From the NCBI GenBank assembly GCA_030324005.1, contig JARDVH010000146.1:26304108-26368107 (forward strand): a stretch of DNA of 64,000 nucleotides, written 5' to 3'. A program made the translations under genes and the position numbers. Position 1 is the stretch's first letter, and the number at the start of each line of letters is the position of its first letter. This document shows positions 5,476 through 64,000 of this stretch, piece after piece. Source of the DNA: Negaprion brevirostris. Taxonomy: Eukaryota. The notes below the pieces were generated by a model. The model saw nothing but the letters and a program-made list of their open reading frames with translations, ran no database searches and was not told where the DNA came from.

Positions 5476-5791
5476 GAAGTTCATCCAGGCTCAAAATGTT
5501 AGCTCTATTCTCTCTACACAGATGCTGTCTGGCCTACTGAGTGTTTGCAGCATTTTCTGTTTTTGTTTCAGATTCCAGCACCCGCAGTGCTTTAATATTA
5601 CACTGATCTTTTGGTATTAGTTACAGCATTATCTCCATCAATGAGTACAAATTACATCAGTGAATACAAATTACATCAATGTAAAATTGGGACCAGCATC
5701 ACAGCAGTATGAAATACTCCATCATACTATATAGGCAGTTACTGTGCACCTCCTTTGCCTGGTTCTATCATTAATTACTATGTGTTCTCAC

Positions 5792-18990: not shown

Positions 18991-19155
18991 CTGAGAATGC
19001 TGGAAATACTCAGTTGGATAAATAACATCTGTGGAGACAGAAGCAGAGATAACACTTGACATGTTAATTCTATTTCTCGCTCCACAGATAGTGTCTGGCT
19101 TGTTGAGTATTTCCAGTTTTTATTTCAGGTTTCCAGCACTTGCACCATTTTACTT
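18990..19155. repeat. Inverted pair of short Penelope-like terminal remnants; single-arm relatives at about 5480-5592 and 61040-61135
   Basis: gctggaaatactca...catctgtggag mirrored by ctccacagata...tgagtatttccag. Confidence 0.55.
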
Positions 19156-29135: not shown

Positions 29136-30033
29136 CTAATGAGATGTGATGAACACAACAATTAAACACAACGTAGCAGGAGATGTCGGCAAACAAACAT
29201 TTAATTCCACGAGGTGAGCGGAATGGAAAACAAATGACATGTTAATATGAGAACACTATGATGGAGTAACATGAGGGAATGCATTGAACAAGACAAATAT
29301 GGAAGGGAAACACTTCACAAACATTACTTTGTTTTGCCATAGCGTTTTTGTTTTTGGAAAGAACTCTGTGTGTGCCATAATATTATTTTAATTCTGTTGC
29401 ACTGGTCTCTTCCTCCATTTTGCTTCAATTGCTCCTAATTCTGGCTAGAATACCATGTCAAACAGAACTATCGTTAATTTTTATCACCAACAATGATTAA
29501 TTGACTAGCTAGCGAGCATGCATCAATAGCCACTATATAAAGAAATGTGCCAATCTAAAGAAGCAAATGGACAATTCAATCCAACTGACAGTCATTTTGT
29601 TACAGCAAAGCAAAACAAAACATCATGTGCCTTGCAAAAGTAGTGAAATCCATCACATATATAGTAGACAACTTGAAAAACTTAAAGCAGGCACTCATCA
29701 AAAAAAAGTCACTGTTTTATTTGCTGGTCAATTATTCAGTGCAAATTATTGTCCCCATCTTATTTTATTACTGCCTTTAATGTTTCTGAAACTAAACACA
29801 CAAGTACAATAGCTCTAGCATACAGTGTGCCTCTCATTTTCAAAAAGCATTACTGATGTTGGTCAAGGAGATGTCTGTGACCTAGACTTGTCAGCACTCT
29901 GCAGAAGCAAGAAGTGATAGCTGTGGGGAGCTAAAANNNNNAGCTAAAAGGATAAAAAGTTTCCCTTTTAATAAAAAAAAATTAGCCTTAAACAAAACCT
30001 ATGCAAATATATACAGCTACAATCAAAGAGTAC

Positions 30034-35040: not shown

Positions 35041-36489
35041 ACCTCAGAGCTCTAGTGACTTATTTGAAATTTTCATGCCTTTTAGTACAATGCTTGTCAT
35101 TTATATTAAATAGCCTGCTCTGATCTGAATATGAGTGTACTTTCTTGTGAATCCTAATGAAGAAACAGGAGTTGGAAAAGGAAGCAGTTTTTCTTTGTCA
35201 GCTGTCCACACTGGTTCATGTTTATCCATATTGAATTTGAGAGGATTAAAGTTTTGAGGATACATTTGACATTGCAAAATCAAACAGTTAACACAATATA
35301 GGGTCAGGGTTATTTAAATTTCTTGTAAGATGTCAAAAGTAGCANNNNNNNNNNNNNNNNNNNNNNNNNNNNNNNNNNNNNNNNNNNNNNNNNNNNNNNN
35401 NNNNNNNNNNNNNNNNNNNNNNNNNNNNNNNNNNNNNNNNNNNNCAAAAGTAGCAATCAGAATACATCAGATGTTGAGCATTTGGAATGGACTTTAATAG
35501 TTGCAAACTAGCCCAGGCCCTGCTGCAGAATGAAAAGAGTTGTTTCGTTCGTACCATTAAAAATGTAACAGTATACGTTACCTTCCATTACTGAGGGCCA
35601 TTGCATGGCAAATTCATAATAAAACACTGCAAAGATGTTAATTTTGGAACCCATATTTCATTCATCAGCAGCTTCAGAATGTTTCTATTTCAATCCTGTT
35701 AACATTTTCAAGCATGCAGAGGAAAGCGGAACAGGTGAATTTTGTTTGATGTGGCTCTTCAGAAGGTGAAAAACCACAAAGTTTGATAGTGGAGGAGTTA
35801 GCTACTGAAGAATCAGAAAGCTCTGGAAAGTGATGACAACACATAATACATAGAACATAGCTAAGTTTAACCCTTTTAGTGTTGCATATCGTTAACAGCA
35901 TTCTACTAGCCAAGTTTCCCATTTATATTTATTTTTCAGCCTTAATCTGCAAAATTGTATTTGAAAAAGAAAGAAAAATTGAAGAATTATCAACACTCTC
36001 CAATGGAAAACTTGCATCAAAAATGTTTCTTTGTATCTCAAAAATGATATCCTTAAAGGGTTAAACATTAAAGAACTTCTAACAAGTAAGTTAGGCAAAG
36101 CACACTTTACAGCAACTAGGTACAGCAACAGTTTGACCCTGTTTCCTCAGGGCAGTGCCTTCACCGAAGAGTCAGTGAACAGCTGTCACTTATTTTGACT
36201 GAAACAGGCACAATATGCATACCTGTTCTTTCTGTCTGCAAATAACAAGGCACTGTGTAATAATATGTAGTTTCCAGTAGATGCAAATATGTCACATTGT
36301 GAGCCTGACTGATGATCTTATATTGGCTATTGGCATAATTCTTTGCAAACTGAGGATCATTGTTTACAAATCAAGTGCAGATGAAAAGCTTCAACATGTC
36401 CCTTTTTTCAGCAATACTCAAGTTCTGTACTACCAAATAATTATCTCAAACTAAACCATGCGGAGTTAAACTGTGATATGGACTTTTAA

Positions 36490-38691: not shown

Positions 38692-38933
38692 CTTTTGTCT
38701 TTCATGCACCTGTGGAATCTGTTCTCCAATTGGTGACTGTGGAGTGCTTGCAGCAAGTTCAGCCTCCACAAAATCAAGCCAGCCACACAGTTCCTCATTA
38801 AAGGCCTGGAATTTTGTTGCAAGCTGCAGAACCTGCTCTAAGGTTTTCAGTGCCCTGGAACTGGAAGAAGTAATTTCCGCATAACGACTCTTAATACCAT
38901 CCAATTTCTCCTGAATTATTATTACTTCTTCAC
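38692..38933 (-). CDS. MACF1: MACF1 exon (EEVIIIQEKLDGIK...HERQK), 242 nt, phase 1-0
   Basis: cctcag / gtaagc. Confidence 0.93.
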
Positions 38934-39554
38934 CTGAGGAAATGAAATATCAGTGAAGGAAATATTGAACAGATATGCACAATAAAATAGGAATATCTTA
39001 ACATTTAAACAAGAACATGTCAAGAACTACAAAAGTCTTAGCTTTTTATTGGAACTTGATTGGACATTCCATTCAAAAAAGGACGAAAATCTCCAGTTTG
39101 AAGAACTGTAAAATTACGACTGTAAATACCTGTGAAAGGATTTTGCTTCGCCTGTGAGACTAATTTGCAAACCATCCATTCAAACTTGTTCAAACATCCA
39201 TTCATCTAACTTAGTAAATCCAAAATTCTGAAATATACCTTTTTTTAAAATTAATTGAATGTTTCAAAAGTCGTCTGCTGGTACAATACATTTAAAAACC
39301 ACGAATGGTAAATACACATCAAGTTCCATAAATAGCGTTTAAATAAACATCAATGAATGTTAATGGTGATATTTTGCTTTACTTAAGTGATTGCACGAAG
39401 AAGTGAACATCTCCATTAAACCACACTTGCTCAGAAATGTTGGTGGAAACACAAAAATAATTGCTAACGCTATGACAATGACCTAGTCAGATTATAGTAT
39501 GATTTCAACATATTTTGTGTTATACGAAGGATACAAATAACAAGGATTAAAAAA

Positions 39555-40340
39555 AAATTATCCTGGCAATAAGCCCTCAACATGGTATTTAGGGTCTGTT
39601 GCCAACTTTCCAGTGCTGTCTGGGATTCAAGATGGTACACACTCAATGTAAAGTGTCTGATGCTTAAACTATCCATGGCCTCCTTAAAAAATTTAGCAGT
39701 AAAATTGGTCTGACTGAATCTCCCTGGGTAATCCATAATGGGTAAAGAAAGCGAGCAACTCCTCCATAACCTTTTTTATCTTGACATTCTGTAATGGAGT
39801 TGCCTCTATAAATCTGACACATCCATTACGGTTATCAAATACTGGTTCCCACTTCTGGTTTTAGGGAGGGGACCTACGCAATCAATTATAACCCGTGTAA
39901 AAGGTTCTTCAAATGTGGGAACTGACATCAAAGATGCTAGTTTATCACTGCTTGTGGCTTTTCTACCATCTAACACGTATGACAGATCTGACAAAATTCA
40001 ACCACATTGTTATGTAATCCAGCTGAATAAAAATACTTCCGTGTCTTAGCCTGAGTTTTCCTCACTCCTAGATGTGGTCCTATAGGTTATGTGTGTGCCA
40101 CTCGCAATACTTCCAGTCTACGTTGCTGGTAGAATACAATCTGGTGGACTTGTGCCCATTTTTCATCTGTGCTAACTACCAAGGTCTCCAGATCCTTAAG
40201 ACTTTATCCTTGAGATAATAGCATTCTGGGATACACTCATTCCTTTTCTGAGTAGGCTTTATGATACAAATCTTTTATTGTCTGATCTTGCTACTGTAAC
40301 TCCATTAATTTTTCAGAACCACATACCTCTGCTTGTTCCT
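39555..40340 (-). mobile_element. Same Gypsy element, integrase part (3' truncated)
   Basis: HLGVRKT zinc-finger region, EPFTRVIIDCVGPLPKTRSGNQYLITVMD, GLPREIQSDQ and YHLESQTALE motifs; frameshifted. Confidence 0.85.
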
Positions 40341-41120
40341 AACAGCAAAATAGACTATTATTTAAATGGTAAAAAAAATTGCAGCATGCTGCTGTGCGGA
40401 GGGGCCTAGGTGTCCTTCTGCAAGAACTACAAGGAGTTGGTCGCAGGTACGGCAGGTAATTAAGAAGGCAAATGGAATTTTGTCCTTCATTGCTAGAGGG
40501 ATGGAGTTTAAAAACAGCGAGGTTATGTTGCAGCTATACAAGGTGCTGGTGAGGCCACACCTAGAGTACTACGTAGAGTTTTGGTCTCCTTACTTGAGAA
40601 AGGATACACTAGCACTGGAGGCAGTGCAGAGGAGATTTGCGAGGTTGATTCCAGAGTTGAGAGGGTTGGCTTATGAGGAGAGACTGAGTAGACTGGGGCT
40701 AAACTCATTGGAGTTCAGAAGAATGTGGACAGATCTTACAGAACATTTAAGATTATGAAGGGAATAGATATGATAGAAGCAGGGAAGTTGTTTCCACTGG
40801 TGGGTGAAACTCGAACTAGAGGGCATGGCCTCAAAATAAGCAGGAGCAGATTTAGGACTCAGTTGGGGAGGAACTTCTTCACACAAAGGCTCGTGAATCT
40901 ATGGAATTCCCTGCCCATGAAGCAGTTGAGGCTATCTCATTGAATGTTTTTAAGGCAAGGATAGATAAATTTTTGAACAGTAAGGGAATTAAGGGTTGTG
41001 GTGAGCAGACAGATAAGTGGAGCTGAGTCCACGAAAAGATCAGCCATGATCTTACTGAATGGCGGAGGAGGCTTGAGGGGCCAGGTGGCCTACTCCTGCT
41101 CCTAGTTCTTATGTTCTTAT
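40341..41120 (+). mobile_element. CR1-type LINE 3' fragment (copy 1)
   Basis: LYKVLVRPHLEY...LEAVQRRF...YEERL, RNFFTQR.VNLWNSLP and a (GTTCTTAT)n tail. Confidence 0.9.
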
Positions 41121-42512
41121 GGACGGCAGCAATTCAAGGTGATGGCTCACCACCACCTTCTCAAGGGCAACTAGGGATTGGCAATAAATGCTGGCCTAGC
41201 CAACGATGCCCATGTCCCAGAAAAGAATTAAAAAATTGCTTTTCTGAAGTAAAGATCACTGGCTCTTTAAGCCTATGTTGATAACTATCACACTTAAAAG
41301 TGTTACAAATACATAAAAAGAAATCCAGTCATTTCACGTGAGTTTGTTTCTTACAAATCTTCCAATCTGCAAAATACCCTTGCCTAACAGCAACTATATA
41401 CTAAATGATCTTAGGTTGTTTATCACATACTGGTCTAGAGTTCCCGGCCTCATTCAGGACCTCGATATTACTCAGCATCTGGGAGCACTGAACTGAATAC
41501 AGTGTTCCAGATGAGGCTTAATCATGGCTTTTTATAAGAACAATATGAGAGGTTTTGTTTTATCTTGGGTCCTCCATATGATACATGCTAAGACTATAGT
41601 AGCTTTTGTCACAGTTTTGTACACTGGTTGTGAATCTTTCAAGATTAGTATACGAGAACACCTTGGCCCATTTCCTGCTCAATGGACCTAGCTCTGAACT
41701 TTGCTTCGTTTTATATACTGTTAATTTTCCATCTCTATTTGCAAAATGCTACACTGATCTATATTGAGTGACATCTGACAGATGTAAGATTAGTTCTTCA
41801 TCGCATCTTGATCTAATTGTCATTTACTTTTCTTGCCTAAGGTCCTACCACCCAAACCATTGCATTATTTGCAAACTTGCAGACTGGGCTTCCAATGTCT
41901 TAATGCAGATCATCAATACAGATTGTTAGGATTGAAACTCCTACCTGTAGTCCGTCACTAGCAACTGACCCTCACACAGAAGTGCCAATATAACAATCAT
42001 TTGCATATCAGGATGTAACCAATTCCTAACCTAATTCAAAATCATCTCACTAATCTTGCTTCTGCGACAAGTGGTGAAGGGTTTAAGTTAGTAGTATNNN
42101 NNNNNNNNNNNNNNNNNNNNNNNNNNNNNNNNNNNNNNNNNNNNNNNNNNNNNNNNNNNNNNNNNNNNNNNNNNNNNNNNNNNNNNNNNNNNNNNNNCAA
42201 GAACTCCTCCTCGAGCCCACCGCGTCCAACATGGGTCGACCAATCAATATGTAGATTGAAATCGCCCATAATTAAATGTTGCACTTGCCTATGTCAGCGT
42301 TTACCCCAAAACAGAAAGGCCAACAGGACCTCAGATCTCCCCTCTTCAGGGCCACCAAGTAACAAAGAAGAACAAACAAAACTGTTTTGTTTTTACAAAG
42401 CAAGTGTTAAAAAGCCCCTTCTTCCTTTATTTTATGTCAGTGGTTTTGACCATGGGAGGTGGAAGCTATTTCATTGATGTGGATAGCCTTTTTCCATTGT
42501 GTATCAATGTCA

Positions 42513-42812
42513 CATAGAATCATAGAATCCTACATTGCAGAAGAAGGCCATTCGGCCCACCAAGTCTGCACTGACTACAATCTCACCCAGGCCCTATCCC
42601 CATAACCCCACGCATTTACCCTAGCTAGTCACCCGACACTAAGGGGCAATTTAGCATGGCCAATCCACCTAACCCGTACATCTTTGGACATGACTAGAAT
42701 TATTTTATTGTTGAACATCTTGTATTAATATTAGGGCCTGGGTAGGATTGTGGTTCGTGCAGACTCGTTGGGCTGAATGGCCTCCTTCTGCACTGTAGGG
42801 ATTCTATGATTC
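42513..42812. mobile_element. Two HE1-like SINE 3' fragments in opposite orientation (42513-42689 minus, 42734-42812 plus)
   Basis: catagaatcc... and ...gggattctatg tails are reverse complements. Confidence 0.75.
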
Positions 42813-42946
42813 TCTCTCTCATTCTCTTTCTCTCAAATTCAAAAGGAGACTTCAAATTTCTACCACAAGCATGTGTTAACGCACCCTGATGTCATTACCT
42901 GGGTGGACTCAATATAACAAGCCCCAAACTCATTTACACTCCTATG

Positions 42947-43239
42947 AAGTTAAAGTTTATTTATTAGTGTTAACACTGCAATGAAGTTACAGTGAAAATC
43001 CCCTAGTTGCTGCACTCCAGCGCTTGTTCAGGTACACTGAGGGAGAATTGAACATGGCCAAAGCACCTAACCAGCACGTCTTTCGGATTGTCAGAGGAAA
43101 CCAGAGCACCCAGAGGAAACCCACGCAGACACGGGGAGAATACGTAGACTTCGTACAGACAGTGACCCAAGCCAGGAATTGAACCCAGGTCCCTGGCACT
43201 ATGAGGCAGCAGTGCTAACCACTGTGCCACTGTGCTGCC
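42947..43239 (-). mobile_element. HE1-like SINE, variant with AATAAATAAAC 3' end
   Basis: Same head as 27711, different tail shared with 49075-49318. Confidence 0.8.
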
Positions 43240-44042
43240 TGATAGGTGGTCACACTGAAGTCTTAACAATCAGCATATAAATGATTTAGTCTGTTCACTG
43301 AATTGGCACTGAATTCTTCCTTGAATTGAATTCACATTTATAAATGTCCAAATACCTGGTAACGACCAACCAAGGAATGGGCAAAATGTGAGGAATCTGC
43401 GTTCATCCTCACTTGCTTGTAACGCTACACTTCGAAAGTACTTCTTTGGCTGTAAGGCCCTTCGAGACATCCTGAGCTTTTGAAAGGTATTGTGTAACTA
43501 AACACCTTTCTTTGTATTCCTCCCCTCTCTTGTCTTCTTTCCCCCCCCCGCCTCCCCCTATTCCTTTCCTTTCCTCCCCATCCCCAGTGTGGAATAGTTT
43601 GCCGTAGCGGGTATCCTGGTGTGGAGTAATGGGTGATGGCACTGACTCTCCCTCCCAGCAATGTTGAATAAATCTCCCTCTAGCTCACGGTGACACATTG
43701 GCTGAGGCAACTTTGCTGTCAGGGCTCGGCACTGCCCAATCTCCTAGCTGTCATCCACTGGTTGTTTTGGACTCACCCCCATTCTCTGTACAATGCATGA
43801 GCTGCATTCTAGTAAATTGAGAAGCTGATACATCGCAGGATAAGTAGTTTTTTCCAGTTAATCTGATTCATCATTTCTATCTTCAGCCAGCACGCAGTTT
43901 TAAGCACCAGATTGAATAAAGATGAAATGGTTCTTTTATAACTCACTTACTGAGCAGCAAAGATGATTCTATCGATTGCTGGTGCTGGAGGGAGAATTTG
44001 CAGCATTCACACGGGCAGCTATTGAGGTGTCCTTTGTACAGA

Positions 44043-44370
44043 CAGCACAGCGGCACAGTGGTTAGCATTGCTGTCTCACAGCACGAGGGATCTGGGTTCG
44101 ATTCCCATCTTGGGTAACTGCCTGTGTGGAGTTTGTATGTTCTCCTCATGTCTGCATGGGCTTCCCCTGGGTGTTCCAGTTTCCTCCCACAGTCCAGAGA
44201 TGTGCAGGTTAGTTGGATAGGACACGCTAAATTGGCTCTTAATGTCAGGGGTCCAGCTTGGGTAAATGCATGGGGTTATGGAGATAGGGCCTGGATGGGA
44301 TTGTGGTCGGTGCAGACTCGATGGGCTGAATGGCCTCCTCCTGCCCTGTAGAGAATCTGTGATTCTATGA
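44043..44370 (+). mobile_element. HE1-like SINE, full length
   Basis: Head, GGTTCGATTCC B-box and tail present. Confidence 0.85.
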
Positions 44371-44784
44371 ATTCTGAGCAGAACATTTTGGGTTGGAGAG
44401 GATGCAGAGGGCAAGTACTGGGATGGAACTAGAGAGGAAGGAATTCAGATTTGTGGAATTTAGTTCTGATTTTCTTCTTCAAACGAAGATGGACAAGGAG
44501 GGAGTGCAGAGAGTTGTTCAAAATCAAATCCTGACAGCCGGTTCAGTCAGCAGAGAACTGAGATTGGAGACCTAAAGGATGAGGGCTTACAGAACACATC
44601 ATTATGATCTTAGTTGCTCTTAATTGGAAGGTGGTGACAATTGACTAAACTGTAACTCTCAACGGGGAAAACCGCTTTGGGAAAGGAGTTGGCAGTACAG
44701 GAGCAACTGGATAGCATTTTTCCAGGAGAGACAGATACAGTGGACCCAATGGCATTCCTCTGCGCTGTATTACTGCATTTAGTT

Positions 44785-45108
44785 CATAGAATCTCGATAG
44801 CGCAGAGGGAGACCATTCAGCCCATCGAGTTTGCACTGACCATAATGCCCTCCTGGCCCTATTCCCATAACTCCATGTATTTACCCTGCAAATCCCTCTG
44901 ACACTAGGATCAATTTTAGCATGGCCAATCCACCTAACCCGCACATCTTTTGGACTGTGGGGAGGAAACTGGAGCATCCGGAGGAAACCCACGCAGATAC
45001 AGGGAGAATGTGCAAACTCCACATAGACAGTGACCCGAGGCTGGAATCAAACCCGGGTCCCTGGTGTTGTAAGGCAGTAGTGTTAACCACTGTGCTACCG
45101 TGCTGCCC
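44785..45108 (-). mobile_element. HE1-like SINE, full length
   Basis: Reverse-complement homologue of 44043-44370. Confidence 0.85.
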
Positions 45109-45458
45109 CTTCTTGATACCTGGACCATTCTCTGTAACTCCTGATGGCTTTTGTGTAATGTGTAATGGTGGAAGGTAGCCTGATTGGTGAACATTTACCA
45201 TCTGTTTTTCTAAAGATTGTAATTGATGTTTTTTTTCTTTCTAAAACCTTTACAAACCTTCCCAGTCACAACAGCTATGAAATGTTGTGATGTTATGCAG
45301 TTCTGATTGGACTTCATATGTCCTTCTTTTTCTGGAGCTGTTGAGTGCCCAACCCAACCCGGTCTATGGAGGAGGGATAAAATCAGTTCCGAAGCTTCGG
45401 TCAGGGGACAAATCCTGACAATGAGCTGATTGTCCAGTGTTTTCTCCCTCTTATGCAG

Positions 45459-45613
45459 ATGCTCCTCAGTCTCCAGGTACTCTGAGCCGGGAGGCTCGCT
45501 CGACTGCCAACAAGAACCGGATTGTGGCGTTGGAGAAACAGCTCGACATTGAGATGAAGGTGAAGCAAGGAGCTGAGAATATGATCCAGATGTACTCCAG
45601 CGGACCCATCAAG
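45459..45613 (+). CDS. Isolated PKN-family (protein kinase N, PKN1/PKN2-like) exon encoding the start of the HR1b Rho-binding repeat; 155 nt, phase 1-0
   Basis: ttttctccctcttatgcag acceptor, AAG|gtaagg donor; peptide DAPQSPG...[32 protein letters not shown] matches the recalled PKN motif [22 protein letters not shown]; paralogue not resolved. Confidence 0.88.
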
Positions 45614-46107
45614 GTAAGGCAGAAATTTCCCAGCATTGAGCTGGCCTTGCTGATGCCTAACAGCTGGTTGAGGTATTTGCTTTTGAGAACGAAGCAGGAA
45701 TAACCTCCTGCTGGGGTGTGTTTAGTGGTGGAGGGAGTGCAGGTGGGTGGGATTTCCTTCACCTGATCATTGGCCATCTCTGTGAAATGTGAAGAAGAAG
45801 AAGCTGCAGTCCCAGCCCTTGGTGACACAAGACAGCCCAATGGCTCACTGCGTTTGAAGCTCTAAAACAATTATAGCAGCTTGAATAGAGAAAAGAAAAA
45901 TGGTTTTGGTCATTTATAATGCTGGAAGGAATCTTCCTGTCAATAAATGACATTAGAAATAAGAGCAAGAGTAGGCCATTTGGCCCCTTAAGTCTGCTAT
46001 GCCAATCAGTAAGATCACTACTTATCTGATTGTGGCCTGGGTTCGGGTGAAGATGGCAGCGGCTGGAGGTCACCCAGGCAATGGGTATGGTCAAGATGGG
46101 AAGTACG

Positions 46108-46620
46108 GTTTTGGTCGTCTTATATGAGAAAGGATATACTGGCACTGGACAGGGTGCAGAGGAGATTCACTAGGTTGATTCCGGTGTGGTTGCCTTATGA
46201 GGTGAGACCGAGTAGACTGGGGCTATTCTCATTGGAATTCAGAAGAATGAGGGGAGATCTTAGAGAAACATATAAGATAGAAGCAGGGAAGTTGTTTCAA
46301 CTGGCGAGTGAAACTAGAACTAGGGAGCATAGCCTTAAAGTAAGGGGAAGCAGATTTAGAACTGAGTTGAGGGGAAACTTCTTCACAAACAGAGTTGTGA
46401 ATCTGTGGAATTCCCTGCCCAAGTGAAGCAGTTGAGGCTACCACATTGAATGTTTTTAAGGCAAGGATAGATAAATTTTTGAACAGTAAAGGAATTAAGA
46501 GTCATAGTGAGCGGACGAGTAATTGGAGCTCAGTCCACGAAAAGATCAGCCATGATCATATTGAATGGCAGAGCAGGCTCGAGGGGCCAGATGGCCTACT
46601 CCTGCGCCTAGTTCTTATGT
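46108..46620 (+). mobile_element. CR1-type LINE 3' fragment (copy 2, same subfamily and orientation as copy 1)
   Basis: KDILALDRVQRRFTRLIP...NFFTNRVVNLWNSLP; colinear with 40580-41115, GTTCTTAT tail. Confidence 0.9.
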
Positions 46621-48590
46621 TCCTCTACCTGCTTAGGTTTTTCCTTTACCATCTCATCAAACAGAGTGTCAGCTAACTGTACCTCAACTCCTTCATCTTT
46701 TTTGTACTCCTTTCCTGTTTCAACTTATGGCTGTGGAATCTTGTCACCACACAGTCCAGAAAAATACCAGGGTATTTTTCTTTTAATCCCTCAATTCCCT
46801 GGTTTTCTTTTGGCAATTTCACTTCAATAGGCATCACTTGCACCTGTGATCCAGCTATATTGTTTCTGTGAATAAACTATATTCCTGGAATACCCAAGTT
46901 TTCTATTATTTCCACTATCACTCCCTAGTCTTAATTTGACTTTCTAGCGATGTCTTACACAGGGGAACATTACTACTATCTTGGGAAATATTTCAGAAAG
47001 AGTGCAAATATTTTCATCTCTTACTATTCGAGACAGACTAGTTCCCATGTCTCTCAATATTTTAACTTCTTTACCTCTTCTACCTGAGTAAATCTTATCC
47101 ACACAGGTCAAGTCTTTGAAAAGGTCAGGCACTATTTTACAATCCAGCACGTGCCTAGGCTATGCACTCTCCTTCAGTTCCTCAACTTCTCTCTGGATTT
47201 CCTTCACTCCTTCAACTAATCCCACTGTTTGAGCCTCTTTTACCACATCCTTTATCCCAATGCCTTTCTTAAGCCACTAAAGTACTGTGACTTTATGTGT
47301 CCCATCTTATTACAGTGAAAACACCTGAGCTCTTTCACCTCTTTTCCACCCTTTTAAGTTTCTTTTTACACGTGATAAACTGTTCCCAACGTAATCTACT
47401 TTGTTCTTCATTGAAGGATCTCCTTCTTTTCCAATTTCTATCCCTCACAGAATGAAATTGCTGTCGGAAGCTAGATTTTCATTTATGCACTAACGTCTAT
47501 TCATCTGCCACCTCTGCAGCTCTTTTCACTGTTTCTGCTCCTCAACATGAGTCCTTATTACTTCTGGAAGTGAGTTTTTAAACTCTCCCAGCAGAATAAT
47601 ATCTCTAAGAACCTCATATGCCCTATCTTTAATGCTCTCATCTATCTATTGAAGTTACTCTGTATAATTCTTTCAAAATTAAAACAAGTCTCACCTGGTT
47701 CCTTTATTACATTTCTGTACCGTTGTCTGTATGCTTCTGGTATCAATTTGTAGGTACTTAAAAATAGCCCTTTTTACTTCATGTTCTCCGGAAGCCTCCT
47801 CTGACAGTGCTGCAAACACCTCGGTAGCCTTGTCTACCAACTTGGTCTGAATTAACCCACACCTCCTCTTGCCAGTTCATCTGTGTAGCCAATTTCTCGA
47901 AGGAAATGAAAAAGGCTTCTGCACTTATCCAAACATTATCATAATTTGATGAAATGTTTGTATATATCCCTAGCAGGCAGTTGGCTACGATGAGCTTGCT
48001 CATCATCACTCCTATCTTGCACTTTCAATTGTTATTTGGAGTCTTTTTGCTTCAAGTTCCAATTTCATCTTTTCAAATTGGACAATCTTTTCCTTTCTTT
48101 ATTTTCTCTCTTTTTCCCTTTCTTTTGCTAGGGCCTTCCTCTCTTTTCTTCTTGCTTCTCTTTTTCCCTTTCTTGTGTTAGGGTCTTCCTCTCTCTTTCT
48201 TCTACCTCCAGCCTTTAAGTTCACTTTCCAATTCCAATTGTTTCATTTGGAATTTAATTTTTTTCTAACTCCACTGTTTGATGGTTTCTCTGATATACCT
48301 AAATGCTTGGCTAACTCTGCTATAGTTTCAACTTTATCATCATCTCTGGTTAAATCCAATTTTAGCCTGTTTGCTAATTCGATAACTGTCATCTTTCTCT
48401 GTCTTTTTAAACTTTCTTGGCAAATTTGGGATGTTCGATCCTCAGAACCTCTTTAACAATGCTAAGAGCCATTTTGTCACTTTTGATTTAACTGACTGGA
48501 AGTCACCTAAATTGAACAGATTTTCCACTTCTCACTTAAGATTTATTTAAAGATCGAGGATTGTTCAAATTCCTGACCCGATCCCCCAAT
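46618..48590 (-). mobile_element. Decayed Gypsy (Gmr1-like) LTR retrotransposon, 5' part: PBS-like site, gag, zinc knuckle, protease
   Basis: Minus strand: TGGGGGATCGGGTCAGGAAT (tRNA-Pro PBS-like) near 48569-48588; gag-like AFFISFEKLATQMNW; CFHCNKMGHIKSQY knuckle near 47283-47325; VKILRDMG protease-like motif; many stops and frameshifts. Confidence 0.78.
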
Positions 48591-49865: not shown

Positions 49866-50986
49866 NNNNNNNNNNNNNNNNNNNNNNNNNNNNNNNNNNN
49901 NNNNNNNNNNNNNNNNNNNNNNNNNNNNNNNNNNNNNNNNNNNNNNNNNNNNNNNNNNNNNNNNNNNNNNNNNNNNNNNNNNNNNNNNNNNNNNNNNNNN
50001 NNNNNNNNNNNNNNNNNNNNNNNNNNNNNNNNNNNNNNNNNNNNNNNNNNNNNNNNNNNNNNNNNNNNNNNNNNNNNNNNNNNNNNNNNNNNNNNNNNNN
50101 NNNNNNNNNNNNNNNNNNNNNNNNNNNNNNNNNNNNNNNNNNNNNNNNNNNNNNNNNNNNNNNNNNNNNNNNNNNNNNNNNNNNNNNNNNNNNNNNNNNN
50201 NNNNNNNNNNNNNNNNNNNNNNNNNNNNNNNNNNNNNNNNNNNNNNNNNNNNNNNNNNNNNNNNNNNNNNNNNNNNNNNNNNNNNNNNNNNNNNNNNNNN
50301 NNNNNNNNNNNNNNNNNNNNNNNNNNNNNNNNNNNNNNNNNNNNNNNNNNNNNNNNNNNNNNNNNNNNNNNNNNNNNNNNNNNNNNNNNNNNNNNNNNNN
50401 NNNNNNNNNNNNNNNNNNNNNNNNNNNNNNNNNNNNNNNNNNNNNNNNNNNNNNNNNNNNNNNNNNNNNNNNNNNNNNNNNNNNNNNNNNNNNNNNNNNN
50501 NNNNNNNNNNNNNNNNNNNNNNNNNNNNNNNNNNNNNNNNNNNNNNNNNNNNNNNNNNNNNNNNNNNNNNNNNNNNNNNNNNNNNNNNNAAAACTAAACT
50601 TAGGTGCAATTTAAAAAAAAACTCACTCTTGCAGAATATTAAGCAACACTTTTTAAAATGTGTACTTTTTAACTCATTCACTACTAAGGGTAGGATTGGG
50701 CTTTGTTCCAACTCCATTTCTTGACGCTAGGAAGCTGGCAGATGGTGTCTTTATGCACTGTGCACAATGGGTGCCAGGCTTTAATAATTGACAACACAAT
50801 GGCAACAGAATAAATGAATTAAAAGGCGTGATTAAAGTTTGCATCTTTGAACTGAAAAAACCTGTGGCCACTTATTGTGTAATTTTCCTCATTTGGATTC
50901 AATAACTAGTTTTATTAAAACATTCCAAGCAGTTCAATACCAAAAACAGAAAATAAAAAAGTTTTGAGTGTTTCTTAATTGTTTAC

Positions 50987-51071
50987 CTGTAGTTTGTTTC
51001 AGTAAAGCCTGTCCATTTTTAATGGCTTGATCGACATTCTTCTTCCGGGATATAATGTCATCATTCAGAGC
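50987..51071 (-). CDS. MACF1: MACF1 exon (ALNDDIISRKKNVDQAIKNGQALLKQTTG), 85 nt, phase 0-1
   Basis: tgtag / gtaaac; read by hand. Confidence 0.92.
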
Positions 51072-58420: not shown

Positions 58421-60331
58421 CCTACAGCTGCACTGCCTTAACTCCAAAAACATACATCAACAAACATTTGCACTCTCATCAAGTTCAATGCAGATCAAAT
58501 ATTTTCTTTACACAAAAAAAATTTTATAGAATTTTCAAAATCACTTCAGAAATGATTAAATATAAGGAAACTATCTAAATTGGATTAACAATATTTCAAG
58601 CCCCTTTAAAAACCACACACTACTAAGCGCATGAGGCAGGATTTTACGGCCTCGCTCGTCCCAAAACCATAAAATCCTGTCCGAGGTCAGCTGATCTTCC
58701 CACGGTCCATCCCTCGCCTGCTCTAGTTCTGGTGGCAGGTGGGGTGGTTCTGGCCATTATGTTCTGAGTGTTTTGTTAATACATGTAGTTAAGTATTCAG
58801 TACTGAATGGGTTCAAGAGTCCATTGTATATTTCACTGTTTTACAGACAGATTAGCTAACTTGATAAATGGAAAAATATGTCTTATAAATGTCCAAAACT
58901 CCTGAACCACTGAAGGGAAAAATAAACCCTCAATCCGAATCCTTCTATTAGCAGCAAAGAACAGTGGTGCGAAATAGTGGAACCAGAAGTGCTGCCTGAC
59001 CAATATAAACTCAGTAATCAAGAACAAATTCAGTTAAGTATTAAACTTCCATTAATGTCAGCACAAAACAGATCATCCTAAGAAACCTCCATGTGTCAAT
59101 TTACTGCTTTTGCGAGCACCAATAAATCAAAATTGCTTCAAACAATACACGTGACTTCATATTCTTGGAACTACAATAAAACACAATAGCCCATGTTATC
59201 CAGAATGTGCAACAGACAAAAGTTACAATAAGTAAGAAAGCAAGTAGAAAAACGTCACTGCTATTCACCAACACAGGAGATGATTCAACAGAAACCGCTC
59301 GAGGTTCACAGTTGTTGCTACAACAACAACATCAAGGCTGGAATTCAGTAATAAGAAAATGCAGTACACAGTCCAAAATGCAAACATTTTACCAACAGTT
59401 CCTGGAACTGCAAGGGGATTGAGATTTTGTTGAAGGCAAATCATGTCAGTAAACAAATTATACTCATCAGCTAACAAAACTAGGATGAGAGAAGAATTGG
59501 CGAATGTTGACTGGGGGAGTGCGTTGGAAGGTAGGTCTGCTGAGGAGCAGTGGAGGNNNNNNNNNNNNNNNNNNNNNNNNNNNNNNNNNNNNNNNNNNNN
59601 NNNNNNNNNNNNNNNNNNNNNNNNNNNNNNNNNNNNNNNNNNNNNNNNNNNNNNNNTCCTGCTCCTATTTCTTATGTTCTTAAATTAGTCAATTTCAATT
59701 TAAAACTCCCCTGTCCCATTTGCACAGCTTTTTTTCTTGCACTACTCAGATAATGAAAACTTTGAAGCTGGAACAAATTTTAGGGCAAGAAAACTGATGT
59801 GGTCTATTAAAAAAAAGAGCAATTGCTTTCATGAAAAGTTGTTTCACAAAAAACTCCCTTTTGCTTTTAGGCAGGTGAGGCATAAGAATAATGTGCCACT
59901 TTCTCATGGTCATATTATATACAAGTAACATGACAGACATTTCAAACCTTCACACTGTACATCAGCAAAACAAAAAACTCTGACAAACGTCATATCGAAG
60001 GCAGTGCCCTTTAAGAAGTTATAGAAATGTGGCAACGAGATAAGTTTTATTTTACCAATGAACTGGAGAGAAGTATAGTGATTTTTGCTATTCAGATTTG
60101 GCACAGATTCAGTGGATGGCCACTTGTTCATCTCTGATTACAGAACAAATGTCTCTTTGTAGTCTATATTCTAAAAATAAAAAATGCAGCAGGGTTTTCT
60201 AAAAGTTTGTTCCAAGTTTCAAATTTCACCCCCATTAAAAATGCAGTTATTAAAACATAAACCACCAATGTTTGAGCTTATTTACTCAAAATAATTCAGA
60301 TCAACTGACTCACTCCTACAATGTAAAATAC

Positions 60332-62784: not shown

Positions 62785-63935
62785 ACAATATACATCAACG
62801 ATTCAGATGCAGGGGACCAAATGTGATATTTCCAAGTTCACAGACAACACAAAGTTAGGTGGAATTGTGTCTTGCGAGGAAGATGCAAAGCAGCTTCAAG
62901 GGGATTTGGAATAGACTTTGACAGGCAGGTGGAATATAATGTGGAAAAATGTGAGGATATCTGCTTTGGTAGGAGGAGCAGAAGCAGAGAGTATTTTTTA
63001 AAATGTAAGAGACCAGAAAGTGTAAATGTACAAAGATATCCAGGTGTCCTCATTAATAGATCATTGAAAACTTTCATGCAGGTGCAGCAAGCATTAGGAA
63101 GGCTAATGATGTGTTAGTTTTTAAATCACAGAAACTTTGGGCACAGGAGTAGCAAAGTTGGATAGAACCTTGTTTAGACTGCACCTGGAATGCTGTGTGC
63201 AATATTGGTCAAAGTATATCATTTCCACAGAGGCAGTGTAATAAGGAATCACATGTTCAGGATGGCTGGACTGCCCCATGAAAAGAAAATGGGAAAATTA
63301 GGTCTGTATTCTCTAGAATTTTGCAGACCGAGAAGTGATCTCATTGAAACCTAATAAATACTTAAAAGGACAGACAGGGTAGACGTAGGCAAGATGTTTC
63401 CCCTGGTTAGGGAGTCTAGACAGTAAGAAGTCTCAACACTCGGTTAAAGTCCAACAGGTTTATTTGGTAGTAAACGCCACTAGCTTTCGGAGCACTGCAC
63501 CTTCACCCGACAAAGGAGCAGCGCTCCAAAATCTAGTGGTGTTCACTACCAAATAAACCTGTTGGACTTTAACCTGGTGTTGAGAGACTTTTTACTGTGT
63601 TTACCTCAGGCCAACGCTGGCATCTCCACATCAGGCAGTCTAGAACCAAGGACATTAACTTCAAAATAAGGGAGAAGCCGCTTCAGACAACGACAAGAAC
63701 TGTTTTCAAAAAAAGGGTTGTGAGTATTTGGCATTCTCCACTCAATATAGCTGTGGAAGCTCAGTTATTAAGTATAAAGCAGAGATTGGCTGATTTCTAA
63801 ATACCAATGACATAAGGGGATTATGGGGATAGTGTGGAGGTGTGGGCATTGAAATGGATGATCAGCCATAATCATACTGAATGGTGGAGCAGGCTTAATG
63901 GGCTGAATGGTCTACTCTTGCTTCTAATTTCCTCT
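62785..63935 (+). mobile_element. CR1 fragment (RT to tail) hosting a nested palindromic insertion
   Basis: atttccaagttcacagacaacac (decayed ISKFADDT), YNVEKCE, CR1 tail. Confidence 0.8.
63421..63636. mobile_element. Palindromic Penelope-like pseudo-LTR insertion with 8-bp target duplication AGTCTAGA
   Basis: About 85-bp inverted arms (63421-63597); AGTCTAGA at 63413-63420 and 63637-63644; degenerate hammerhead-like core. Confidence 0.7.
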
Positions 63936-64000
63936 GCACTATATGTACTGTAGCAGTTGAAGCAACAGTTCACCACCACTTTATCAAGAGCCACCTGATC

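Follow-up and report, generated by a model that had tools for sequence, protein, structure and literature searches.

Two like elements placed around a cargo, with a duplication outside them, give bacterial composite transposons of the Tn9/Tn10 type their appearance. In hominines, an lcr16a circle was integrated by recombination between SVA elements, as set out in the available part of that report (Damert 2022, PMC9132208). Duplications through circular intermediates are treated in the accessible portion of a review (PMC3420103), which covers cattle KIT, tilapia vasa and an Alu model for segmental duplications. Among the entries listed by literature searches, titles and abstract openings showed no shark or CR1 case, a result that is not proof of absence.

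We analyzed a window of 64 kb (the whole stretch of DNA under study) from a shark draft assembly, in which a block bounded by two CR1 fragments had been likened by the first-pass annotation to a composite transposon. Two like elements do flank the cargo (the CR1s are 82% identical), but the comparison failed on mechanism. The ends are LINE 3' fragments without transposase that encode only the C-terminal part of the CR1 reverse transcriptase (RT) and are 5'-truncated at different points. Among the 25 of 27 inverted-repeat pairs listed, none joined the outer ends of the block.

The host intron, the Gypsy element and the outer duplication

In the assembly, the layout of CR1, cargo and CR1 interrupts a decayed Gmr1-like Gypsy element within one MACF1 intron. 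The features are as follows (TSD, target-site duplication).

38692..38940, minus strand: MACF1 exon 3' of the intron (P0170 residues ~5530-5612, tblastn 94%)
39557..40333, minus strand: 3' part of the Gmr1-like Gypsy, covering the zinc-binding and core regions of integrase, decayed and shortened (matches of 29/29 homologues)
40334..40340, plus strand: left TSD copy, 7 bp, TGTTCCT
40341..41120, plus strand: CR1-1, a 5'-truncated CR1 with ORF2 residues 346-573 of P0121, 3' UTR and two tail units
40938..40983, plus strand: 46-bp tract identical between the CR1 copies, candidate switch point (partner 46444-46489)
41121..42097: left half of the cargo, the 3' end of another repeat followed by an old, decayed CR1 RT remnant (minus strand)
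42098..42197: unsized scaffold gap of 100 N
42198..46102: right half of the cargo, PKN intron DNA that begins in a younger CR1 endonuclease piece
42198..42275, minus strand: the younger CR1 endonuclease piece (61% amino acid identity)
45459..45613, plus strand: 155-bp kinase exon of the PKN family with intact AG/GT, opening the second HR1 repeat (PF02185, E 3e-9)
46103..46622, plus strand: CR1-2, 5'-truncated, same subfamily, with ORF2 residues 423-573 of P0121, 3' UTR and tail
46618..46624, plus strand: right TSD copy, 7 bp, its initial 5 bases compatible with the CR1 tail as well
46625..48249, minus strand: Gypsy 5' part, decayed gag-like and protease-region remnants (tblastn with SCAN-bearing polyproteins)
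50976..51071, minus strand: MACF1 exon 5' of the intron (residues ~5504-5535, tblastn 91%)

P0170 is annotated as MACF1-like, and all 30 of 30 tblastn matches to MACF1 exons were complete and ordered. The Gypsy homologues carry PF02023 and PF00665, and their matches end near 39557. On the two flanks these matches are collinear and leave no room for RT between the protease region and the integrase that follows it; with SCAN-type gag relatives as well, the element has the organization of the Gmr1-like group, a name that we take to denote Gypsy elements with integrase directly behind the protease region. The 3' part carries stops and frameshifts. When the flanks were translated separately, the duplicated 7-mer fell in the same codon phase on each, and the spacing of flank matches agreed with the window within 1-19 residues in 13 of 29 homologues; 15 of the 29 lacked a match near the right junction, and one further homologue with matches on both sides was omitted from this count as its match entered CR1-1. 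The claim that removing the block restores a continuous Gypsy frame held for the local codon phase and not for the element, which is full of stops and frameshifts.

A sequence search confirmed TGTTCCT at both reported positions, and all 7 of 7 bases of the outer duplication of the resident CR1 match. This 7-mer occurs 7 times across the window, and an exact match of at least 7 bases was found at 0.7% of 3000 random position pairs. The overlap of the right copy with the CR1 tail, also suggested earlier, was borne out: 5 of its 7 bases fit the tail, and the CR1 alignment ends at 46622. As far as the sequence allows, these data demonstrate that a single CR1 insertion into the Gypsy element created the 7-bp duplication, in keeping with the earlier proposal that one CR1 inserted there first. 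The duplication is no proof that the 5-kb cargo belongs in the MACF1 intron; it proves only one former CR1 insertion.

The CR1 copies and the cargo between them

The two CR1 3' fragments at the block ends are both on the plus strand, as reported. CR1-1 starts exactly at 40341, and both copies reach the ORF2 end and the 3' tail; the ORF2 C-terminus, the 5' truncation and the short tandem 3' tail are those of CR1 LINEs. Compared with P0121, a CR1 ORF2 relative carrying PF00078, the end pieces showed 75-87% amino acid identity, with tail units present. A similar tail is found at another, gap-collapsed CR1 (59657). The two copies share 82.2% identity over 544 columns; they are 14% apart, mostly unique at the k-mer level, with decay of ~7% each. 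The 46-bp tract is the longest that they share, is not beyond chance (permutation p = 0.056) and encodes the same residues as P0121. A mosaic test of low power against P0121 detected no divergence switch along either copy; divergence is even, and only ~130 bp lie beyond the 46-bp tract. Metagenomes scanned with a 26-base piece of this tract gave 0 matches, and a scan with P0121 confirmed 11 of 50 candidate stretches at best-segment identities of 37-72%, none of them of this subfamily. A word-based listing of sequencing runs gave at least 24 from 12 studies, of which one contained half or more of the words (0.67) and none was listed for RNA; these shares carry no weight as evidence here.

The PKN exon and the gap inside the cargo were both present as first described. 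That the cargo is foreign to the MACF1 intron was supported by the PKN exon and by the white shark, in which the MACF1 protein derives from a 115.8 Mb sequence and the PKN protein from a separate 37.2 Mb sequence. Its two halves differ. The RT remnant left of the gap has 26-33% amino acid identity and contains stops. GC content is 0.387 in the left half vs 0.464 in the right; the left value lies below all 59 overlapping right-half windows (0.441-0.489) and falls among the usual values for the host (442 windows, mean 0.373). The best GC change point is 42999 (support 42045-43089), compatible with the gap and not pinned there. Of 10 SINE-like loci in the window, 5 lie in the right half and 0 in the left, so the description of the cargo as SINE-rich stands for the right half and fails for the left.

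No sequence overlap was found across the gap at 42098-42197, and the chance of a gap falling inside the cargo is ~0.44. A single LINE spanning it was ruled out, since the flanking pieces differ in age. At the two remaining 100-N gaps by which a CR1 is interrupted (26401 and 59557), the far side opens with a CR1 3' end; this is not so here. The window holds 13 gaps, 8 of exactly 100 N, and one is preceded by a 56-base G run, which is typical of short-read data. That a MACF1 exon occurs in 7 of 7 inner pieces does not establish gene-guided scaffolding, since 10.7% of random-cut trials match this. One gene-guided scaffolding tool does insert 100 Ns, according to the available part of its description (PMC5834899).

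The PKN exon showed 0 differences over 51 amino acids from P0001. Against 23 cartilaginous-fish orthologue records it showed 0-6 differences, with 0 in 3 of the 23. Under 7% neutral decay, the chance of zero change is 2e-4, and the exon limits neutral decay to at most 2.4%. Because the CR1s have decayed by ~7%, the undecayed exon must be either a working exon that is misplaced or a very recent copy. A tblastn search of the window with PKN proteins revealed no further PKN piece. The exon runs antisense to MACF1, and its length of 155 bp is not a multiple of 3; shuffling into MACF1 is therefore impossible, and the exon mobilization envisaged earlier has no coding outcome.

Origin of the block

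We consider it probable that the block is an assembly chimera, in which contigs were mis-extended through CR1 and joined at the gap. As far as the sequence shows, target-primed reverse transcription long ago placed a 5'-truncated CR1 in the decayed Gypsy element of the MACF1 intron; the CR1 tail paired with 5 target bases, and the insertion produced the 7-bp duplication. The true locus would then read Gypsy, a single CR1 of ~0.8 kb, Gypsy. The left contig may have entered this resident CR1 and exited in another copy of the subfamily, the right contig may likewise have crossed into a CR1 copy within a PKN intron, and scaffolding would have ordered the two pieces along MACF1, with 100 N as a placeholder between them. 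Extensions into two different loci appear the more likely variant; the other is a crosswise-resolved repeat node with a single PKN-intron copy.

The chimera is favored because it needs a gap in the cargo and one is present, because the halves are unlike at that gap in GC, SINE count and LINE age, and because the exon is undecayed, the draft fragmentary and the inner duplication no longer than 3 nt. This last figure is the best exact match, vs 7 outside; the test is weak, as CR1 copies are often without visible target duplication or may lose it. The missing inner duplication, the unlike halves and the undecayed exon thus spoke against a real recombination importing the cargo, as the first-pass annotation had proposed, and for the assembly artefact that it had named as the rival. 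Several findings count against a chimera. Both sides must err at the same repeat, and the CR1 copies are old and mostly k-mer-unique. Even in a single locus, old LINE sequence may have another GC content than DNA rich in SINEs, and the change point is not fixed to the gap. The complete, ordered MACF1 exons and the lack of another PKN piece indicate no other such error here, and a real case with the same architecture has been published (available part of PMC9132208).

That real case lends weight to a recent insertion, by homeologous repair of the broken resident CR1 on PKN-flanking CR1s or by a PKN circle entering via CR1, which we judge unlikely here, though it is the most credible alternative. 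It predicts that hybrid CR1s bound the block and that the old 7-bp duplication is outermost. The outer duplication, the same-orientation, same-subfamily ends and the foreign cargo are as predicted, the 46-bp tract is a possible crossover, the SVA elements in apes show the same layout (PMC9132208, in the part available), and the gap may merely hide a young CR1 of which 42198-42275 is the start. However, the inner duplication predicted by the circle version is absent, the cargo halves are unlike, the low-power test saw no divergence switch along either CR1, and exon decay of at most 2.4% means that the recombining CR1s would already have been ~9-14% apart. It is accordingly doubtful that a recent germ-line recombination between CR1 copies 9-14% apart, perhaps still polymorphic, moved a PKN piece of at least 5 kb between chromosomes into the MACF1-intron CR1.

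Very unlikely is a 5' transduction, in which an active CR1, working in trans, reverse transcribed a piece of unspliced PKN pre-mRNA that terminated with the CR1-2 tail, and synthesis broke off within CR1-1. The block does end in a LINE tail that shows microhomology over 5 bases, the sense of the PKN exon is that of both CR1s, a duplication bounds the whole, and the tail resembles that at 59657. Such an event would nevertheless require its 5' end to hit, by chance, a copy of the same sense and subfamily; CR1-1 is decayed throughout, which argues against a fresh template switch, and the two parts of the cargo are dissimilar in GC, in SINE number and in the age of their LINEs. Finally, a chance 7-mer match between two unrelated Gypsy pieces that are merely adjacent, for which 5 of the 7 bases could derive from the CR1 tail, is largely refuted by the null rate of 0.7%, by the collinearity of the flanks in 13 homologues and by their shared codon phase, and we give it almost no credence.

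Significance and comparison with known systems

If the block is an artefact, a double mis-extension through one LINE can mimic a cargo between elements with a target duplication, and the assembly has displaced a working exon from its own gene. Scans of repeat-rich drafts should then ask whether similar blocks contain an unsized gap and an exon free of decay. If the block is real, repeat-mediated interchromosomal duplication, as with Alu and SVA in primates, would extend to CR1 in cartilaginous fish; the block would be a shark CR1 counterpart of the SVA case, with no coding effect on MACF1. In slowly evolving genomes rich in repeats, CR1 fragments would then serve as landing pads when DNA is copied between chromosomes, and outer duplications would be a means of counting such events.

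Bacterial composite transposons share with the block only its look; the duplication here is explained by a single CR1. In the lcr16a case, in the available part of the report (PMC9132208), exon-bearing cargo likewise lies between retroelements of the same type, and the duplication of the resident element is outermost. There, however, the flanking SVAs are shown to combine two subfamilies, an inner duplication is present, the cargo is permuted relative to its source and the BAC sequence is continuous. The shark CR1s belong to the same subfamily and diverge evenly from P0121, no inner duplication was found, and the cargo is cut by a gap. As in the cattle KIT, tilapia vasa and Alu cases (PMC3420103, in the portion accessible), gene pieces lie on another chromosome and the signature consists of repeats or circle order; those cases have been validated and are much larger, whereas the shark block offers a single antisense exon in a draft. 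A further likeness is to an ordinary nested CR1 in a Gmr1-like Gypsy element, with which the locus shares 5' truncation, tail microhomology, a short duplication and a decayed host, and from which, the cargo aside, it shows no difference.

The host intron and its CR1 insertion

The window covers part of a MACF1 gene of a shark, read from the minus strand. Thirty tblastn matches to a MACF1-like protein, P0170 (>55% identity), form an ordered and complete series over residues 5228-6943, and the block under study (40334-46624) sits within a single intron.

38692-38940, minus: MACF1 exon on one side of the block's intron (tblastn against P0170)
40334-40340 and 46618-46624: left and right copies of the 7-mer TGTTCCT
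40341-41120, plus: CR1-1, the first CR1 fragment
41121-46102: cargo, cut by a 100-N gap at 42098-42197
45459-45613, antisense to MACF1: PKN kinase exon (start of second HR1 repeat), 155 bp
46103-46622, plus: CR1-2, the second CR1 fragment
50976-51071, minus: MACF1 exon on the other side (tblastn against P0170)

The assembly is a draft; this 64-kb stretch has 13 gaps, of which 8 are exactly 100 N long. A 56-G run beside a gap (2433-2488) is probably a short-read artefact. The gaps at 35345-35444 and 29937-29941 have exact overlaps of 11 and 8 bases across them, which may mean that the contig ends overlap or that an insertion was left out and its duplication remains.

The first-pass annotation had proposed that a single CR1 first inserted here, and this held up. 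Both copies of the 7-mer were confirmed, CR1-1 starts immediately after the left one, and CR1-1 and CR1-2 end in a common tail and match the C-terminal part of P0121, a CR1 ORF2 relative (75-87% identity). The suspected tail microhomology was also borne out, as the right copy opens with 5 bases that fit the CR1 tail too; such microhomology is expected of target-primed reverse transcription. Among 3000 random position pairs, 0.7% gave a match of at least 7 bases. Both flanks match SCAN-bearing Gypsy polyproteins. Of 29 homologues, 13 have a distance between their matches on either side of the junction that agrees with the window within 1-19 residues (15 had no match near the right junction and one, whose match extended into CR1-1, was dropped). 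The codon phase of the 7-mer is identical in the two flanks. Of the continuous Gypsy frame originally described, the local register thus stands but not an open frame, because the element is decayed throughout. As judged from sequence, the site was made by a single CR1 that inserted into a Gypsy remnant and left a 7-bp duplication.

Several other repeats were seen. The charged, gag-like region of the Gypsy has a tandem 50-base duplication (82%) at 48093-48192. About 65 bases ahead of CR1-2 lies a CR1 3'-end fragment in inverted orientation (45950-46039). At 41121-41235 and about 63930-63994 a CR1 3' end is directly followed by the same other-repeat 3' end (74% identity over 136 bases), as would result from target preference or from a family that is itself chimeric. 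MITE-like hairpins at 63431-63585 and 19000-19116 have arms of 73 and 55 bases, 89% and 71% complementary.

Composition and age of the cargo

PKN-derived DNA lies between the two CR1 pieces in this assembly. The exon has intact splice sites and differs from 23 cartilaginous-fish records by 0-6 residues (0 for 3 of the 23). The intron start behind it matches read-through in a Mustelus asterias PKN model (87.7% over 73 residues), and the 64-kb window contains no further PKN exons. The exon mobilisation suggested earlier would be without consequence for MACF1 coding, since an antisense exon of 155 bp cannot become part of its mRNA. The white shark records for MACF1 and PKN are on sequences of 115.8 Mb and 37.2 Mb, respectively, so the cargo source is probably another chromosome. 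That Mustelus model (XP_078090894.1), the sole Mustelus match within the top 120, is a PKN of 288 residues without kinase domain that runs from this exon into the intron, the next exon being absent; in that genome, too, the region around PKN may therefore be rearranged or difficult to assemble.

CR1-1 and CR1-2 are 82.2% identical over 544 columns (86.3% if each gap run is counted once), which would place each about 7% from a common source if decay was equal. The PKN exon, in contrast, shows no change at any of its 119 non-synonymous sites or at the 4 splice bases, which bounds the decay of a free copy at 2.4% or less (95% bound); the chance of zero change at 7% decay is 2e-4. Arrival of the cargo at a time when the two CR1 copies were still young and similar is therefore excluded, and the exon is either the working exon, misplaced, or a very recent copy.

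The 100-N gap divides the cargo into two dissimilar halves. GC is 0.387 on the left, much as in the host (mean 0.373 over 442 windows, of which 25% reach 0.387 or more), and 0.441-0.489 in 59 of 59 overlapping windows on the right. The best change point is 42999 (support 42045-43089), a range that takes in the gap without being pinned to it. Only the right half deserves the description SINE-rich: of 10 SINE-like loci in the window it contains 5, and the left half none. Minus-strand CR1 faces both gap sides, endonuclease then RT, an order that at first sight points to one element. A single CR1 spanning the gap was rejected, as the RT remnant has 26-33% identity and is rich in stops while the endonuclease piece reaches 61%, so that they belong to different elements. 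At the two other 100-N gaps cutting a CR1 the far side opens with a CR1 3' end, whereas that of the cargo gap does not. A gap inside the cargo does fit a chimera, as noted at first, but its mere presence is weak evidence because the chance of one in a 5-kb stretch is already ~0.44.

Origin of the block

We consider it likely that the block is an assembly chimera: contigs from both sides would have passed through the single CR1 into other CR1 copies, and the mis-extended pieces would then have been scaffolded in MACF1 order. This requires two errors at one old repeat, or a single crosswise error, which the inner duplication test and GC disfavour; moreover, the rest of MACF1 is correctly assembled. 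Recent homeologous recombination is a clearly less probable alternative. One exact 46-bp tract is common to CR1-1 and CR1-2 (p = 0.056; its residues equal P0121); it may mark either a crossover or an assembly node and favours neither. No switch in divergence from P0121 was found along either fragment, a comparison with little power, and metagenome scans gave no DNA of this CR1 subfamily. We regard 5' transduction of PKN pre-mRNA as very improbable, and chance as more so still. These rankings are judgements from several weak lines rather than computed odds. The block is not a composite transposon, because it ends in pieces of LINEs and its duplication is that of the CR1 which inserted first. 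Most probably, an assembly artefact is superimposed here on a nested insertion of an ordinary kind.

The titles and abstract openings searched held no shark or CR1 case of retroelement-mediated duplicative insertion. A published SVA case has the same layout, with chimeric ends and both outer and inner duplications (PMC9132208); at the shark block, however, the best match for an inner duplication, the target duplication expected for an incoming element, is only 3 bases. If real, the block would work like the retroelement-mediated duplicative insertions described for primates (PMC9132208; reviewed in PMC3420103), and would join them as a further case.
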